DNA of 64,000 nucleotides from an uncultured Gammaproteobacteria bacterium (GTDB lineage: Bacteria; Patescibacteriota; Patescibacteriia; Patescibacteriales; GWC2-42-12). The stretch lies in the NCBI GenBank assembly GCA_964431805.1, contig CAYSKV010000005.1, positions 3,435 through 67,434 on the forward strand, in the 5' to 3' direction. Below the pieces are notes generated by a model. The model was not told the DNA's origin and did no database searches. It was given only the letters and a program-made list of their open reading frames with translations. Positions 51,814-53,888 of this stretch are shown one piece after another. Position numbers and translations under genes: made by a program. Numbering within the stretch: the stretch's first letter is position 1; each line of letters starts with the position of its first letter.

Positions 51814-51847
51814 AAAATTTATATTTAAATTAATAATAAAATAATCT

Positions 51848-51875
51848 TGTCATTGCGGCCCCCGAGCCGCAATCC
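51848..51875 (+). repeat. TGTCATT-hairpin-AATCC repeat unit
   Basis: TGTC-ATTGCGGC-ccccga-GCCGCAAT-CC. Confidence 0.6.
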
Positions 51876-51944
51876 ATTTCCATAATTAAGCTTCGCCAGA
51901 ATTCCCTACTTTTGTTTTTAAAATAAAATTTTTTCATATTTTTT

Positions 51945-51971: not shown

Positions 51972-52056
51972 ACTACCTTTATTATATAAATTTATTAATT
52001 TTAGAATTGGCGGGAAACGAAACAAAATATAATTTCGTTTCCCGCGTTTTGCCTTT

Positions 52057-52257
52057 TTAGTCTTGCCAAAGGCAGTCGGCACGGCGGATGCCTACCACTG
52101 GCATTTTCCAGATACTATCAGCTTTTTTTAATTCAGCTAGCAGGCTCTTTTCTTGTTCGCGAGTTATTAATCCATCATTTTTAGCCGTCCTTATGTCCTT
52201 TGATGTTAAATCTTCAACCAGTATTTTTACCTTGTCCGCAATTTCCGATAATTTCAT
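52057..52257 (-). CDS. 66-aa hypothetical protein, second gene behind the T-box leader
   Basis: AAGGAGAataaaagATG, where the SD overlaps the stop of the upstream ORF. MKLSEIADKVKILVEDLTSKD... is helical and charged. Confidence 0.55.
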   Translation of the reverse strand: MKLSEIADKVKILVEDLTSKDIRTAKNDGLITREQEKSLLAELKKADSIWKMPVVGIRRADCLWQD

Positions 52258-52269
52258 CTTTTATTCTCC

Positions 52270-52464
52270 TTATCTGTGATATGTTGAGTTAAAACCACTT
52301 AAACTAGAACCACAACCGCGCGGACATTTTGCTTCTGCGCCAAATCCTACGCCTATAGTTTTTGCGCTACCGCAAAAACCGCATTTGTCATTGCTATTAC
52401 CAAAAATTAAAACATCATCATCTTTTATTTCTTTTTTATCATCCTTCTTTAAATCAGCTGACAT
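52270..52464 (-). CDS. 64-aa four-Cys mini-protein, first gene behind the T-box leader
   Basis: Trimmed to the ATG at 52462-52464, preceded by GGAGGG (52477-52472). MSADLKKDDKKEIKDDDVLIFGNSNDKCGFCGSAKTIGVGFGAEAKCPRGCGSSLSGFNSTYHR (CxxC ... CxxxC). Confidence 0.55.
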   Translation of the reverse strand: MSADLKKDDKKEIKDDDVLIFGNSNDKCGFCGSAKTIGVGFGAEAKCPRGCGSSLSGFNSTYHR

Positions 52465-52509
52465 AATTTTTCCCTCCATATTTTTTTTATAAAGATCGTT
52501 TTGGAAAAC

Positions 52510-52846
52510 AAAAAAGCTTCCCATCTCTTAAACATAGCTAAACTATGCTTAAGGGACGGAAAGCCTTGCTTTTCGTGTTGCCACCCTTATTCCGAAAACA
52601 AAAAAACGCTTTTGAGCGTTCTATTTTCGCTCATCGACTCATGCTTCGTTTTTAACGAAAGACATCGATTATCCTATGATTACGGAGGAAACCGAGTTAA
52701 CACTAACGCATTAACCACCCTTTAAGTTCAGGCCCAATCCCAGCGTATCGCCGGGACCCGAACGGGTTTTACAATTTGTTTACCCCTGTTAAATCCGCGA
52801 AGCGGAAATTTGCCAAAGGCCAATTTATTTAACGGGGTGAAGTTCT
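52510..52846 (-). promoter_or_regulatory. T-box-type leader (antiterminator 52588-52551, terminator 52564-52516 plus U-tract 52515-52510, Stem III-like hairpin 52620-52605)
   Basis: AAGGG-UGGCAAC-ACGAAAAGC-aag-GCUUUCCGU-CCCUU matches the T-box antiterminator architecture (A1 helix, 7-nt UGGN bulge, A2 helix). Its 3' half re-pairs into a 21-bp terminator with one mismatch, followed by UUUUUUGUUUU. Promoter TTGACA(52880-52875)-16-TATACT(52858-52853). Confidence 0.65.
52782..52844. repeat. Structured element closed by CCCC(T)GTTAAAT/ATTTAACGGGG, copy 1
   Basis: Plus strand CCCCTGTTAAAT-[CCGCgaaGCGG]-[AAATTTGCCaaaGGCCAATTT]-ATTTAACGGGG. The 20-mer TTATTTAACGGGGTGAAGTT (52825-52844) recurs exactly, inverted, at 54913-54932. 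Confidence 0.6.
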
Positions 52847-52868
52847 AAAATCAGTATAGCAAAAATAA

Positions 52869-53888
52869 TTAATTTGTCAATTCCTGATTCGAATCAGCTT
52901 TTAATTTTTGCCACGGCGTAAACTTTTTTCTTTTAGCGCTAAAATATCCGGCCGTAGCGATCATAGCTGCGTTGTCCGTACAATATTTAAATTCAGGAAT
53001 AATTAATTTAGTATTAATTAATTTATTTTTTACCGCTGTTTCAAGTTGGCTTCTTAATTCAACGTTCGCCGCTACACCACCCGATAACATAATATTTTTA
53101 CAATTATATTTTATAGCCGCTTTAATAGTTTTATGAACTAAAACTTCAGCTACGGCTTTTTGAAATTCATAAGCATACTCGGAAATTTTCTTTTTATAAT
53201 TTTTATCTTTTTGTATTTCGTATAACAACGCTGTTTTCAATCCAGAAAAAGAAAAATCAAAATCACCGGAATTAAGCATCGGTCTTGGTAATTTATTAAT
53301 TAGTAATTTGTAATTTGTAATTTGTAATTTTGCCGCGCTAGCGGCGATTTCCGGTCCTCCTGGATATCCTAAATTAAGTAATTGCGACGCTTTATCAAAA
53401 GCTTCGCCGGCTGCATCATCTCTAGTTTCGCCTAATAATTTATATTTACCATGCGCGGTCATTAAAATTAACATAGTATGACCCCCGGATACTGTTAAAA
53501 TTAACGCCGGAAATTTCGACTTACTATTTATAAAATTGGCGTAAATATGTCCTTCAATATGATTAATAGCTATGACCGGCAAGCTCCAAGCATAGGCTAA
53601 AGTTTTAGCCGTTTCCACTCCGACGAGTAATGACGTAATTAATCCCGGCCCAGTCGTCACGGCAATCGCATCAATTTTATTTACGCCTCTAAGCGCTTCG
53701 TTAACTACCGGCAAAATATTTAAAACATGTTCGCGCGCCGCCACCTCTGGCACCACGCCGCCATATTTTTTGTGTATTTCGATTTGTGAAGAAACCACAT
53801 TTGATAAAACCTTAACTTTATCACCCATACCGCAAACGACCGAGGCCGCGGTTTCATCGCACGAGGTTTCAATGCCTAATATATTCAT
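52869..53888 (-). CDS. tsaD: tRNA N6-adenosine threonylcarbamoyltransferase
   Basis: 339 aa. ILGIETSCDETA, HIEGH, SGGVAAN motifs. Confidence 0.95.
   Translation of the reverse strand: MNILGIETSCDETAASVVCGMGDKVKVLSNVVSSQIEIHKKYGGVVPEVAAREHVLNILPVVNEALRGVNKIDAIAVTTGPGLITSLLVGVETAKTLAYAWSLPVIAINHIEGHIYANFINSKSKFPALILTVSGGHTMLILMTAHGKYKLLGETRDDAAGEAFDKASQLLNLGYPGGPEIAASAAKLQITNYKLLINKLPRPMLNSGDFDFSFSGLKTALLYEIQKDKNYKKKISEYAYEFQKAVAEVLVHKTIKAAIKYNCKNIMLSGGVAANVELRSQLETAVKNKLINTKLIIPEFKYCTDNAAMIATAGYFSAKRKKFTPWQKLKADSNQELTN

Follow-up and report, generated by a model that had tools for sequence, protein, structure and literature searches.

We analysed a window of 64 kb from an ultra-small, uncultured bacterium of the CPR, meaning the whole stretch of DNA to which all positions below refer, and examined the minus strand from the end of tsaD to trpS. 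A promoter, a long structured leader, two mini-ORFs, trpB2 and trpS follow one another there. According to an earlier note on this DNA, the leader is of the T-box type and drives the two tiny ORFs and no aminoacyl-tRNA synthetase. The promoter and leader comprise the following features, in the order of transcription.

52853 to 52880, minus strand: sigma-70-type promoter, with -35 TTGACA (52880-52875), a 16-nt spacer and extended -10 TGcTATACT
52778 to 52839, minus strand: three-way-junction element of 62 nt, located downstream of the transcription start and upstream of Stem I
52717 to 52767, minus strand: truncated Stem I, from RNAfold and from RNAalifold on 10 leaders
52734 to 52736, minus strand: UGG, the Trp specifier codon, located in the bulge AUUGG on the 3' side of Stem I
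52695 to 52716, minus strand: short Stem II, GGUUAA/UUAACU, with a conserved 10-nt loop UGCGUUAGUG
52673 to 52694, minus strand: Stem IIA (CGG...CCG) and pseudoknot IIB (UCCU 52689-52686 with AGGA 52676-52673)
52633 to 52669, minus strand: linker helix AUCGAU/GUCGAU, enclosing a variable hairpin
52593 to 52629, minus strand: Stem III, aligned to Stem III of RF00230 and also formed by RNAfold
52551 to 52588, minus strand: antiterminator, with A1 AAGGG/CCCUU, the 7-nt bulge UGGCAAC (52583-52577) and helix A2
52505 to 52564, minus strand: intrinsic terminator, with 5' arm 52564-52543, 3' arm 52537-52516 and U-tract 52515-52505

The promoter overlaps the last tsaD codons and matched 11 of 12 consensus positions (-10 hexamer TATACT at 52858-52853, preceded by TG). 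It was kept in five relatives (L203, L206, L208, L189 and L210). The TTGACA-16-TATACT site proposed earlier at the end of tsaD is confirmed. The earlier description of a leader richer in GC and hairpins than its surroundings was also borne out: GC content was 0.39-0.44 against 0.27-0.38 in the flanks, and the 361-nt leader had a folding energy of -125 kcal/mol, compared with -92.1 +/- 5.4 for shuffles (z = -6.05). The three-way-junction element, whose termini form the inverted repeat CCCCGUUAAAU...AUUUAACAGGGG, had no Rfam match. It was missing in the close relative L203, which has AAA instead, and a comparable element occupied the same site in L084, L099 and L162 (four of 97 leaders, including that of the window). 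On comparative grounds, we regard it as optional and outside the T-box core.

Structure, family and tRNA identity of the leader

Folding had been suggested earlier as a way to locate Stem I, the K-turn and the specifier. It yielded Stem I and a specifier, and no K-turn in the window. Stem I is made up of the outer helix ACCC/GGGU, in which UUAAA is bulged, a lower helix (52763-52756 with 52733-52726) and an upper hairpin (52755-52739). In homologous leaders, the lower helix was 100% paired, with four of five pairs changed on both sides, and the upper part was a plain 5-20-bp hairpin of variable sequence. The distal platform (AG bulge plus distal loop) was absent, 86 Stem I model positions being deleted in the RF00230 alignment. 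The GA motif of a K-turn at the base of Stem I was absent in the window and its near relatives, where the outer helix with its bulge stands instead; most family members have UUGA...UGAGG (K-turn) at this place. G52733, directly after the specifier, forms a U.G closing pair. UGGG was invariant in the alignment designated A2, and UGG stood at the specifier position in all family members examined.

Stem II was 97.6% paired, and all six of its pairs were changed on both sides. The F-box/IIA-B part of RF00230 was matched with high posterior probability. The Stem IIA/B motif served as our search pattern, and the invariance of most of its positions is therefore uninformative; the single IIB pair left free by the pattern covaried (UA/CG/GC). 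In the linker helix (RNAalifold pairs 146-154/205-212), CG to UA changes occurred on both sides.

The antiterminator lies exactly where the earlier note had put it, with the bulge that it had described. Helix A2 is ACGAAAAGC/GCUUUCCGU with one A.C mismatch, and GGUGG of the T-box sequence was invariant in the family. Across 88 sequences, 90.4% of the antiterminator cells were paired, compared with 50-59% when the 3' partner was slid, and 10 of 14 pairs were changed on both sides. The two arms of the terminator form 22 pairs with one C.A mismatch, and UUUUUUGUUUU comes directly after them (52515-52505). Its 5' arm reuses the 3' half of the antiterminator, 52564-52551 being common to both. In 88 sequences, 91.6% of its cells were paired (43-52% when slid) and 19 of 22 pairs were changed on both sides. 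The folding energies were -30.1 kcal/mol for the terminator and -9.3 kcal/mol for the antiterminator. These results confirmed the mutually exclusive pairing inferred earlier. Covariation was thus seen for Stem I, Stem II, the IIA/B pseudoknot, the antiterminator and the terminator; an independent RNAalifold consensus of 10 leaders agreed with this structure, and small lineage-specific insertions were confined to loops.

The RF00230 search proposed in the earlier note matched 52724-52549 (minus strand) at 36.4 bits (E = 3.5e-6 in a 1.2-kb scan and 1.9e-4 in the whole window), which does not reach the curated gathering threshold of 93 bits. RF00230 was the sole Rfam family fitting the leader, with model positions 1-219 covered and Stem I mostly deleted, and the low score is explained by the approximately 86 missing Stem I positions. 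The search thus fell short of the cut-off, while the T-box reading holds through covariation among homologues. None of 20 sampled family members reached the cut-off either (family range 36-65 bits; L005, 64.9; L003, 38.5). Standard annotation would miss these T-boxes because the tRNA-elbow-binding tip of Stem I is missing.

Scanning metagenomes for the Stem IIA/B motif recovered 120 homologous leaders. They precede trpB2, trpB, trpS, trpE/G, trpA, trpD-like, DAHP-synthase-like and chorismate-mutase-like genes; trpB2, trpB and trpS were assigned by tblastn, and the other genes were read from N-terminal sequences without a profile search. The element travels with Trp genes and not with tsaD, since genes other than tsaD stand upstream of it in L003, in L005 and in most of the 120 loci. 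The L005 T-box lies directly upstream of trpB2 and has tRNA-Trp(CCA) behind it. The leader at 52846-52505 (minus strand) is, on these comparative data, a T-box of a previously unannotated subclass in CPR/Patescibacteria. The earlier note had placed it in a lineage without described T-boxes. We found no paper combining T-boxes with CPR or Patescibacteria, which is consistent with that statement; it has to be qualified in that the related MAG L003 contains canonical T-boxes above the Rfam threshold.

The earlier inference from UGGC to a tRNA with G73 was supported and could be sharpened to tRNA-Trp because of the UGG specifier, a bulge that is only UGGY, G73 in linked tRNA-Trp genes and the adjoining Trp-pathway genes. 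Over 110 leaders, the fourth bulge base was U in 69, C in 41 (as in the window) and A or G in none, and all four tRNA-Trp(CCA) genes linked to T-box loci have G73. The 64-kb window contains no tRNA-Trp gene, and G73 of the cognate tRNA was therefore taken from relatives. As far as sequence can tell, and without binding data, the T-box is specific for tRNA-Trp. The TCG-A sites offered earlier as Ser specifier candidates (52669-52664 and 52638-52633) proved to be the two strands of the covarying linker helix, and Ser specificity was rejected.

The mini-ORFs and the downstream Trp genes

Beyond the terminator, the locus continues as follows.

52270 to 52464, minus strand: ORF1, 64-aa Cys4 mini-protein (CGFCGS...CPRGCGS), with a GGAG-type SD
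52057 to 52257, minus strand: ORF2, 66 aa, with a GGAG-type SD; three predicted helices and a flexible tail
52010 to 52045, minus strand: GC-rich hairpin of 14 bp after ORF2, its U-tract decayed to CAAUUCUAAAAUU
51971-51946 and 51875-51849, minus strand: two hairpin-repeat copies, GGATTsCGG...CCGsAATGAC
51830 to 51937, minus strand: uORF upstream of trpB2, with conserved core MKKFYFKNKSREFWR and Trp codon 51898-51896
51813-50521, minus strand: trpB2 (NCBIfam NF009057, 732 bits)
50452-49445, minus strand: trpS (TIGR00233, 373 bits), with ORF98 following trpB2-trpS downstream

The two SD-led, stop/SD-coupled mini-ORFs of the earlier note are both present, and homologues were found for both. The SD of ORF1 (~52477) lies about 30 nt past the terminator helix and is unpaired, and the ORF1 stop codon overlaps the SD of ORF2. 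ORF1 has the layout C28-x2-C31, VGFG, C47-P-x2-C51 (C47-x3-C51) and a GF tail, with no Trp residue. Its homologues are found in L203 (two residues different), in P0018 (63% identity) and P0020 (57%), and in L109/L198. The P0018 homologue lies behind the same T-box in L210, and the homologues at 57-63% identity did so wherever the flanking context was known. Related mini-ORFs matched the generic Pfam zinc ribbons Zn_Ribbon_1, DZR and Zn_ribbon_3. Generic zinc-ribbon mini-proteins have two CxxC-type knuckles some 12-20 residues apart in fewer than 100 aa. ORF1 itself matched nothing, and the AlphaFold modelling suggested earlier for it failed to help, the AlphaFold2 model being unusable (pLDDT 47.7). 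ORF1 is probably a zinc ribbon, zinc binding being inferred.

For ORF2, 13 homologues shared the invariant residues I49, W50, G56, L63 and W64. None of them had a Pfam family, and one, from Candidatus Gribaldobacteria, is listed as a hypothetical protein. The AlphaFold2 model reached a pLDDT of 77.5. An ORF2-type gene always directly followed an ORF1-type gene. The order tsaD - T-box - ORF1 - ORF2 - (trpB2) - trpS was kept in L203, L206 and L208, L211 keeps ORF1 - ORF2 - trpB2, and the L210 sequence covers the T-box and ORF1 and runs into the beginning of ORF2. Although there are no expression data, the comparative evidence leads us to treat ORF1 and ORF2 as real genes.

A Cys4 mini-ORF was the first gene after the T-box terminator in 22 of 89 loci, where 0.21 were expected (p = 2.7e-16), so that such mini-ORFs are approximately 100-fold over-represented directly after these terminators. 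An intrinsic terminator followed the mini-ORF(s) directly in 16 of 25 loci, indicating that the mini-proteins themselves are the output of the sensor. The earlier proposal of a T-box driving tiny ORFs instead of a synthetase, and its suggestion to look in related genomes for the same leader with mini-ORFs and covariation, were thus both answered positively: the loci are recurrent and the alternative pairings conserved.

All the downstream features listed in the earlier note (a hairpin without a U-tract, two hairpin repeats and trpB2-trpS-ORF98) are present. The hairpin after ORF2 was kept in L203, L206, L208 and L211, and it corresponds to a called terminator in L109/L198 and L117/L206. The hairpin repeat has only two copies in the window, neither of which is in L203; on our reading, the copies are insertions flanking and entering the uORF, whose reading frame in the window is extended by a repeat insertion. 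Of 12 distinct Patescibacteria loci that were compared, 10 have the uORF peptide (...KN[KR]..EFWR) before trpB2, with synonymous variation (GAA/GAG, UUC/UUU, CGN), and the peptide was absent from about 75 other trpB2 loci. No conserved terminator/antiterminator pair was found after the uORF in relatives. On the minus strand between ORF2 and trpB2, neither the window nor L203 has a promoter-like site. L206 has one (10 of 12 positions) directly before trpS, and co-transcription of the cassette with the Trp genes is therefore not general and remains uncertain in the window. Read-through into the Trp-codon uORF, trpB2 and trpS is plausible here as an inference, because the terminator after ORF2 lacks a U-tract.

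Proposed mechanism and alternative explanations

We consider it very probable that the leader at 52846-52505 (minus strand), together with ORF1 and ORF2, is a transcription-attenuating tRNA-Trp T-box that switches on a mini-protein cassette; tRNA binding, antitermination and expression are inferred. By default, as established knowledge of T-boxes would predict, the -30 kcal/mol terminator would form and transcription would end at ~52505. Uncharged tRNA-Trp would bind the specifier UGG (52736-52734) and the bulge, whose UGGC is complementary to the tRNA-Trp end G73-C-C-A. This binding would stabilise the -9 kcal/mol antiterminator and allow RNA polymerase to continue. The direct product would be the conserved two-gene cassette, consisting of the zinc-ribbon-type Cys4 protein ORF1 and the three-helix protein ORF2 with its invariant Trp. 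In relatives, the cassette, or a lone zinc-ribbon ORF, is closed by its own intrinsic terminator. In the window, some transcripts would probably run on through the conserved leader peptide of 15 residues with its Trp codon and into trpB2 and trpS. The mini-proteins are most likely trans-acting, as an inference, and their target is unknown.

Three other explanations were weighed against this reading. The T-box could in reality serve trpB2-trpS, like that of an ordinary Trp operon, and the two mini-ORFs would then be chance or functionless frames within a long leader. The same T-box class does stand directly before a uORF and trpB2 in L189 (whose TrpB2 is 92% identical), L005, L086, L196 and L201; in the window, ORF2 and trpB2 are not separated by any promoter-like site, and a word-indexed search found no homologue of ORF1. 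However, conserved ORF1 homologues behind the same T-box, 13 ORF2 homologues with invariant residues, strong SD sites on both mini-ORFs, the excess of Cys4 mini-ORFs after terminators, the own terminator after most of them and the position of the L109/L198 cassette 3 kb from trpS make this explanation very unlikely. The mini-ORFs might also be cis-acting Trp-codon leader peptides, on which ribosome stalling tunes the next gene as in rtpLP or trpL, the proteins being functionless. This would be difficult to reconcile with the absence of Trp from ORF1 of the window, with loci where a terminator directly follows the ORF and leaves no downstream gene to tune, and with four conserved Cys and a predicted three-helix fold, which are unexpected for a mere stalling peptide. 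We judge it unlikely, even though Trp is conserved at or near the ORF2 C-terminus (W50 and W64 of 66), many related zinc-ribbon ORFs have a C-terminal Trp (G-W-G-type tails in 12 of 26, compared with 4 of 111 background ORFs), ORF2 has an SD that overlaps the stop codon of ORF1, and a true Trp leader peptide (EFWR) lies just downstream.

There might also be no tRNA sensor at all, the leader being a structured tsaD 3' UTR or terminator, or chance hairpins with a T-box-like sequence; a sub-threshold RF00230 score and a leader beginning within the end of tsaD would be in line with this. The near-consensus promoter upstream of the leader, the association of the element with Trp genes and not tsaD, the covariation behind every helix and the invariance of the UGG codon and UGGY bulge stand against it. 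Comparative data thus already contradict this explanation, and we give it almost no chance.

Returning to the tRNA-Trp T-box reading, it is possible, although we hold this only tentatively, that units of T-box, mini-ORF and terminator are stand-alone sensors of tRNA-Trp charging in CPR, whose sole output is a trans-acting zinc-ribbon mini-protein, with a three-helix partner in this clade. If so, Trp starvation would be broadcast to an unknown target, e.g. RNA polymerase, the ribosome, TrpRS/TrpB2 or a TrpR-like repressor, and the units would add to another Trp sensor that relies on the ribosome, the EFWR leader peptide before trpB2.

Comparison with known systems

In Firmicutes, tRNA-Trp is well known to control Trp genes. 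With class I T-boxes (RF00230; the B. subtilis tyrS, glyQS and trpS leaders), the leader shares a specifier in Stem I, Stem II, IIA/B (F-box CCGUAA), Stem III, the T-box sequence AGGGUGGNANCNCG, the 7-nt UGGN bulge and an antiterminator mutually exclusive with an intrinsic terminator and its U-tract. It differs in that Stem I is cut to a short hairpin above the specifier, without the AG bulge/distal-loop platform that stacks on the tRNA elbow and is one of the contacts that define class I, and the K-turn is replaced in the window by a plain helix with a bulge. Instead of a specifier "loop", the family has no more than a 3' bulge of 3-5 nt, and its Stem II, a hairpin of 6 bp, closes a conserved loop of 10 nt.

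Translational ileS T-boxes with an "ultrashort Stem I" have reportedly been described in Actinobacteria. The TBDB classes these as class II and assigns the longer Stem I to transcriptional T-boxes (PMC7778990). Our leader shares with them a truncated Stem I without the distal platform and the retention of Stem II and IIA/B, and one family member (L093) has its specifier in the terminal loop, as they do. In contrast to their sequestered RBS, the window leader has a strong terminator and a free SD. No class II sequestrator helix hiding the SD is present in the leader, where the terminator helix is followed by UUUUUUGUUUU and the ORF1 SD is unpaired. The amino acid (Trp, not Ile) and the phylum also differ. 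This makes the family a hybrid of both, in which a short Stem I is combined with transcriptional control, against the TBDB statement (PMC7778990).

The uORF at 51937-51830 resembles E. coli trpL-type attenuation as a short ORF with a conserved near-terminal Trp codon directly before a Trp biosynthesis gene. It differs in having a single Trp codon, not tandem ones, in co-occurring with a T-box and in lacking a conserved terminator/antiterminator pair.

The B. subtilis at operon consists of a tRNA-Trp T-box, rtpLP and rtpA, which encodes anti-TRAP, a 53-aa zinc-binding protein. The earlier comparison with anti-TRAP does not extend to homology: among the best 60 of 180 matches of an ORF1-family profile to PDB sequences, anti-TRAP was absent, and the profile found generic zinc ribbons (RNA polymerase subunit P/Rpo12, bL33, Gin, Fin and LysW). 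In this test for similarity to anti-TRAP, with its DnaJ-like CxxCxGxG zinc motif, ORF1 alone gave no hit, and Pfam and NCBIfam gave none either. ORF1 is, moreover, accompanied by a second, helical mini-protein, its target is unknown, and no TRAP gene is known or seen here. The comparison is apt as circuit logic: in both systems, the output of a tRNA-Trp T-box is a very small Cys4 protein, plausibly trans-acting, and no enzyme, and a leader peptide with a Trp codon is found nearby. Should the stand-alone units be real, they would be a counterpart of the anti-TRAP circuit of Bacillus that evolved independently.

Structure and conservation of the leader

The leader begins behind TTGACA-16-TATACT with a TG extension, which agrees with 11/12 consensus positions, as expected for the near-consensus promoter claimed in the earlier note; it is the sole promoter-like site on the minus strand between 53100 and 51700. 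The 361-nt leader folded at -125 kcal/mol, against -92 +/- 5.4 kcal/mol for shuffled sequences (z = -6.05), and its claimed GC richness was confirmed as a modest excess (0.39-0.44 vs 0.27-0.38 in the flanks). The gene calls for ORF1 (64 aa, four Cys), ORF2 (66 aa), tsaD, trpB2 and trpS were all confirmed. The elements of the proposed switch, with folding energies of -9.3 kcal/mol for the antiterminator and -30.1 kcal/mol for the terminator, also matched their first description:

52588-52551, minus strand: antiterminator
52564-52516, minus strand: overlapping terminator
52515-52505, minus strand: U-tract

At gathering thresholds, Rfam returned six tRNAs in the window and nothing else. With E-value reporting, the T-box family RF00230 was the best family on the leader, as had been predicted, but its 36.4 bits lay below the gathering threshold (E = 3.5e-6 in a 1.2-kb scan, 1.9e-4 window-wide). 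The model aligned end to end with 86 Stem I positions deleted, and the IIA/B and T-box segments had high posterior probability. Because this match alone was suggestive and not conclusive, relatives of the leader were sought.

The three closest TrpB2 loci in species-representative genomes were Patescibacteria MAGs. L005, from Candidatus Staskawiczbacteria, carried a 64.9-bit T-box directly upstream of trpB2 and a tRNA-Trp(CCA) gene 3' of trpB2. L003 had a 38.5-bit match upstream of trpB2 and two canonical T-boxes of >106 bits elsewhere. These leaders and the window shared long motifs such as CGGYUUCCUCCGUAAYCAUAGGAUAAU, and a scan of metagenome contigs with this motif yielded 120 loci. The RF00230 cut-off was reached by 0/20 sampled family members, so the subclass goes unannotated. 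A literature search found no publication linking T-boxes with CPR or Patescibacteria.

We aligned the 3' half of the leaders (alignment A1, 88 distinct sequences) and the 5' half (alignment A2, 28 sequences). Column shuffles of the antiterminator and of the terminator matched the observed percentage paired or the covariation score in 0/500 cases.

Table. Pairing and two-sided changes in the helices of homologous leaders
Antiterminator (A1): 90.4% of cells paired; 50-59% with the 3' partner slid; 10/14 pairs changed on both sides
Terminator (A1): 91.6% of cells paired; 43-52% with the 3' partner slid; 19/22 pairs changed on both sides
Stem I lower helix (A2): 100% paired; 4/5 pairs changed on both sides
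Stem II (A2): 97.6% paired; 6/6 pairs changed on both sides

In the IIA/B pseudoknot, the single pair left free by the search pattern covaried as UA/CG/GC in A2; the remainder was fixed by that pattern, so its invariance is an ascertainment effect and uninformative. Run on ten leaders that share the window's subtype, RNAalifold independently gave the outer helix, Stem I, Stem II, a linker helix (AUCGAU/GUCGAU) and the terminator. It also proposed pairing between the IIA loop and the T-box sequence (columns 123-129/296-302), where both strands are nearly invariant and covariation is uninformative. A possible second, upstream T-box at AAAGGGUGGUUAAUGCG (52723-52707) was rejected, as this segment joins the 3' strand of the outer helix of Stem I to the 5' strand of Stem II, both of which covary.

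Two kinds of accessory sequence were found in or near the leader:

52839-52778, minus strand: three-way junction of about 62 nt between the transcription start and Stem I, closed by a helix that is a 12-nt terminal inverted repeat of the CCCAGUUAAAUA...UAUUUAACUGGG type
51971-51946 and 51875-51849, minus strand: hairpin repeat GGATTsCGG...CCGsAATGAC, the only two copies in the 64-kb window

The three-way junction contains two internal hairpins of differing sequence and has no Rfam match. It occurs at the same place in the distantly related L084, L099 and L162. A core role as a substitute platform for the tRNA elbow was rejected, since the close relative L203 lacks the junction and only 4/97 leaders have it; it is an optional accessory domain or else a very small mobile element that is strict in its choice of target. 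Both copies of the hairpin repeat are also missing from L203, and the second lengthens the frame of the short upstream reading frame (uORF) before trpB2 from 16 to 35 codons. L003, L090, L104, L189 and L211 have similar hairpins with AATGAC at their end. GC-rich insertion hairpins (ACCCGCC...GGCGGG / ...GGCGAGGCAGG) were seen in L206 (2711-2750), L208 (Stem II, A2 and terminator loops), L109/L183 (IIA loop) and L210 (A2 loop), repeated inside T-box leaders and always in predicted loops. The look of these small GC-rich hairpins suggests that the genomes carry a family of miniature insertion elements. The small insertion hairpins of relatives lie only in loops of the predicted fold (Stem II, IIA, A2 and terminator loops), and this natural insertion scan agrees with the structural model.

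Tryptophan identity of the leader

The Stem I plan of the family comprises a K-turn, present in most members, followed by a covarying 6-8-bp helix and a variable upper hairpin with CCC at its start and GGG at its end. The 3' bulge of 3-5 nt always has UGG at its end, and the next G pairs with U to close the lower helix. The window's specifier codon is U52736-G52735-G52734. The fourth base of the UGGN bulge was U in 69 leaders, C in 41, and A or G in none, as a G73 discriminator requires. The earlier inference of a G73 tRNA was borne out by this UGGY bulge and by G73 in 4/4 tRNA-Trp(CCA) genes found in family loci. The two TCG-A sites proposed as Ser specifiers proved to be the paired strands of the linker helix in the RNAalifold structure, and G73 is explained without tRNA-Ser.

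By tblastn, trpB2, canonical trpB and trpS lie downstream of many family members. N-terminal sequences, without a profile search, showed other first genes resembling trpE/G, trpA, trpD-like genes, DAHP synthase and chorismate mutase, and further ones that look like membrane proteins and ligase/deacylase-type enzymes. Together, the UGG specifier, the UGGY bulge, G73 of tRNA-Trp and the downstream Trp-pathway genes identify the element, on sequence evidence, as a tRNA-Trp T-box, with tRNA binding itself inferred.

By N-terminal inspection, the first genes of L083, L088, L103, L111, L147, L154, L163, L173, L202 and others variously resemble carboxylate-amine ligases (GCS2-like, VGVERE motif), succinylglutamate-desuccinylase/aspartoacylase-like, amidotransferase-like and radical-SAM enzymes, and include one 285-aa protein without known function. 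These putative assignments suggest that CPR bacteria recover Trp from conjugates by routes not yet recognised. The leaders of L085, L188, L195 and L156 keep Stem I (with UGG), Stem II and the IIA/B pseudoknot, and the search pattern did not find a T-box bulge in them; a short GC hairpin with a U-tract, a YSWR uORF, canonical trpB and trpS follow. They may be a version of the sensor that is reduced further or wired in another way.

Mini-proteins and downstream Trp genes

The earlier note took the small proteins to be the regulated product, and across the family this is a recurrent and statistically solid feature. An SD-led Cys4 ORF starting <=150 nt from the T-box terminator was present in 22/89 distinct loci vs 0.21 expected if such ORFs were as dense there as in the rest of these loci (odds ratio 25.6, p = 2.7e-16). 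The Cys4 mini-ORFs are of several sequence types; several match generic zinc-ribbon Pfam families, and a C-terminal G-[WFY]-G motif was found in 12/26 mini-ORFs vs 4/111 background ORFs. An intrinsic terminator directly follows the mini-ORF(s) in 16/25 distinct loci (10 with a single mini-ORF, 6 with a pair). T-box, mini-ORF(s) and terminator thus form a predicted self-contained unit, which argues for the protein as the functional output and against a purely cis-acting leader-peptide role.

ORF1 retrieved only itself in a word-indexed protein search; an exhaustive search found two homologues, P0018 (63% identity) and P0020 (57%), and HMMER on the collected loci related it to the ORF that comes first in L109/L198. 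They have in common the pattern C-x2-C-G...[VL]-G-F-G...K-C-P-x(1,2)-C followed by a G-[FW] tail, and the AlphaFold2 model was uninformative (pLDDT 47.7). The ORF2 family comprises 13 proteins, none with a Pfam domain, one of them a hypothetical protein of Candidatus Gribaldobacteria. Its residues I49, W50, G56, L63 and W64 are invariant, and the C-terminus is usually LW. AlphaFold2 predicted three helices and a flexible tail (pLDDT 77.5). Foldseek of this model against the PDB gave nothing significant (best E = 3.7); its weak matches were mostly helix-turn-helix DNA-binding domains, a hint only, and one source labels an ORF2 homologue 'predicted transcriptional regulator'. Pfam and NCBIfam searches with ORF1 and ORF2 found no family.

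The family profile, searched against all PDB sequences, matched generic zinc ribbons (RNA polymerase subunit P/Rpo12, bL33, aS34, Gin, Fin, LysW and TFIIB), among which Gin and Fin are anti-sigma factors. LysW, itself a zinc ribbon, carries an EDWGE motif at its C-terminus; the last residues here are neither conserved nor acidic, and a LysW-like amino-group carrier was rejected. The suggested analogy to anti-TRAP survived for the circuit logic, which is as in the Bacillus at operon, but not for descent: anti-TRAP was absent among the best 60 of 180 PDB matches listed for the profile, and homology was unsupported by the profile and ORF1 searches of PDB sequences. It is inferred that ORF1 binds zinc and that the mini-proteins act in trans, as is their target. 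In L086, L196 and L201, an 80-106-aa protein 3' of trpB2 is TrpR/YerC-YecD-like by sequence (...RWKVARMLSE...GLSSTTVARVS...) and is a candidate, as yet only putative, for the target or partner of the mini-proteins.

The order tsaD-promoter-T-box-ORF1-ORF2-hairpin-(uORF-trpB2)-trpS-ORF98, in which ORF98 encodes a 98-aa protein, recurs in L203, L206/L207 and L208/L209. L211 has ORF1-ORF2-hairpin-uORF-trpB2, and the short contig L210 covers the promoter, T-box and ORF1 and reaches into the beginning of ORF2. Conservation extends to the hairpin downstream of ORF2 (52045-52010). Its tail is U-rich in L109/L198, L117/L206 and L208, where the hairpin is called, or reads, as a terminator; the window, L203 and L211 have CAAUUCUAAAAUU as the tail. 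No promoter-like site was found between this hairpin and trpB2 in the window or L203; in L206 a 10/12 promoter-like site ends 7 nt before the trpS start codon. In L189 (TrpB2 92% identical), the T-box lies directly before the uORF and trpB2, without the cassette. In the window genome, transcription is likely to read through in part from the T-box unit into trpB2-trpS, although this is inferred and not shown.

The uORF forms a further element before trpB2:

51937-51830, minus strand: uORF with its Trp codon at 51898-51896 and the pattern ...[FI]K[NI]KN[KR]..EFWR

In L203 (6283-6333) it reads MKKFYFKNKSREFWRS followed by a stop (16 aa). It is also found in L005 (about 1609-1677), L086, L196, L201, L115, L084, L189 and L211, and was present in 10/12 distinct Patescibacteria trpB2 loci compared and in 0/~75 trpB2 loci of other phyla; L085, L188 and L195 have the YSWR variant before canonical trpB. 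Third-codon variation (GAA/GAG, UUC/UUU, CGN) indicates that the uORF is coding, and it is probably a Trp-sensing leader peptide, as predicted from its sequence. No conserved terminator or sequestering hairpin was found 3' of it in the compared loci.

ORF98 (49441-49145, minus strand) has no Pfam/NCBIfam match. Homologues with 56-84% identity occur in L104, L109, L117, L189, L203 and L209, directly 3' of trpS in L104/L149, L203 and L209 and further downstream in L109, L117 and L189; ORF98 may be a functional partner of TrpRS.

Comparison with known T-boxes

The genes behind this leader family make up a Trp regulon of CPR bacteria, with TrpB2 for indole salvage, TrpRS, and candidates for transporters and for ligase/deacylase-type genes, and thus show what these uncultured symbionts scavenge. 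In a quarter of loci the product is a mini zinc-ribbon protein with its own terminator, not an enzyme, synthetase or transporter; to our knowledge, anti-TRAP is the only precedent for such a T-box product. This raises the testable question of how minimal genomes use a tRNA-charging signal beyond switching on biosynthesis.

The distal platform of the canonical T-box Stem I is entirely absent from the family. In L093 the upper Stem I hairpin is gone and the codon lies in the terminal loop, and in the window's subgroup an ACCC/GGGU helix and a UUAAA bulge replace the K-turn. Truncation of Stem I characterises the translational 'class II' T-boxes known from Actinobacteria. Transcriptional T-boxes have a longer Stem I, according to the TBDB paper (PMC7778990). 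The window leader shares the truncated Stem I with the class II elements, but ends in a strong intrinsic terminator and leaves its SD unsequestered. These comparisons support a putative CPR-specific, transcriptional T-box with a truncated Stem I and tRNA-Trp identity. The subclass is missed by standard annotation and may show how a transcriptional switch holds its tRNA without elbow contact. It pairs a Stem I cut short in the class II manner, thought typical of translational T-boxes in Actinobacteria, with a transcription terminator of the classical kind.
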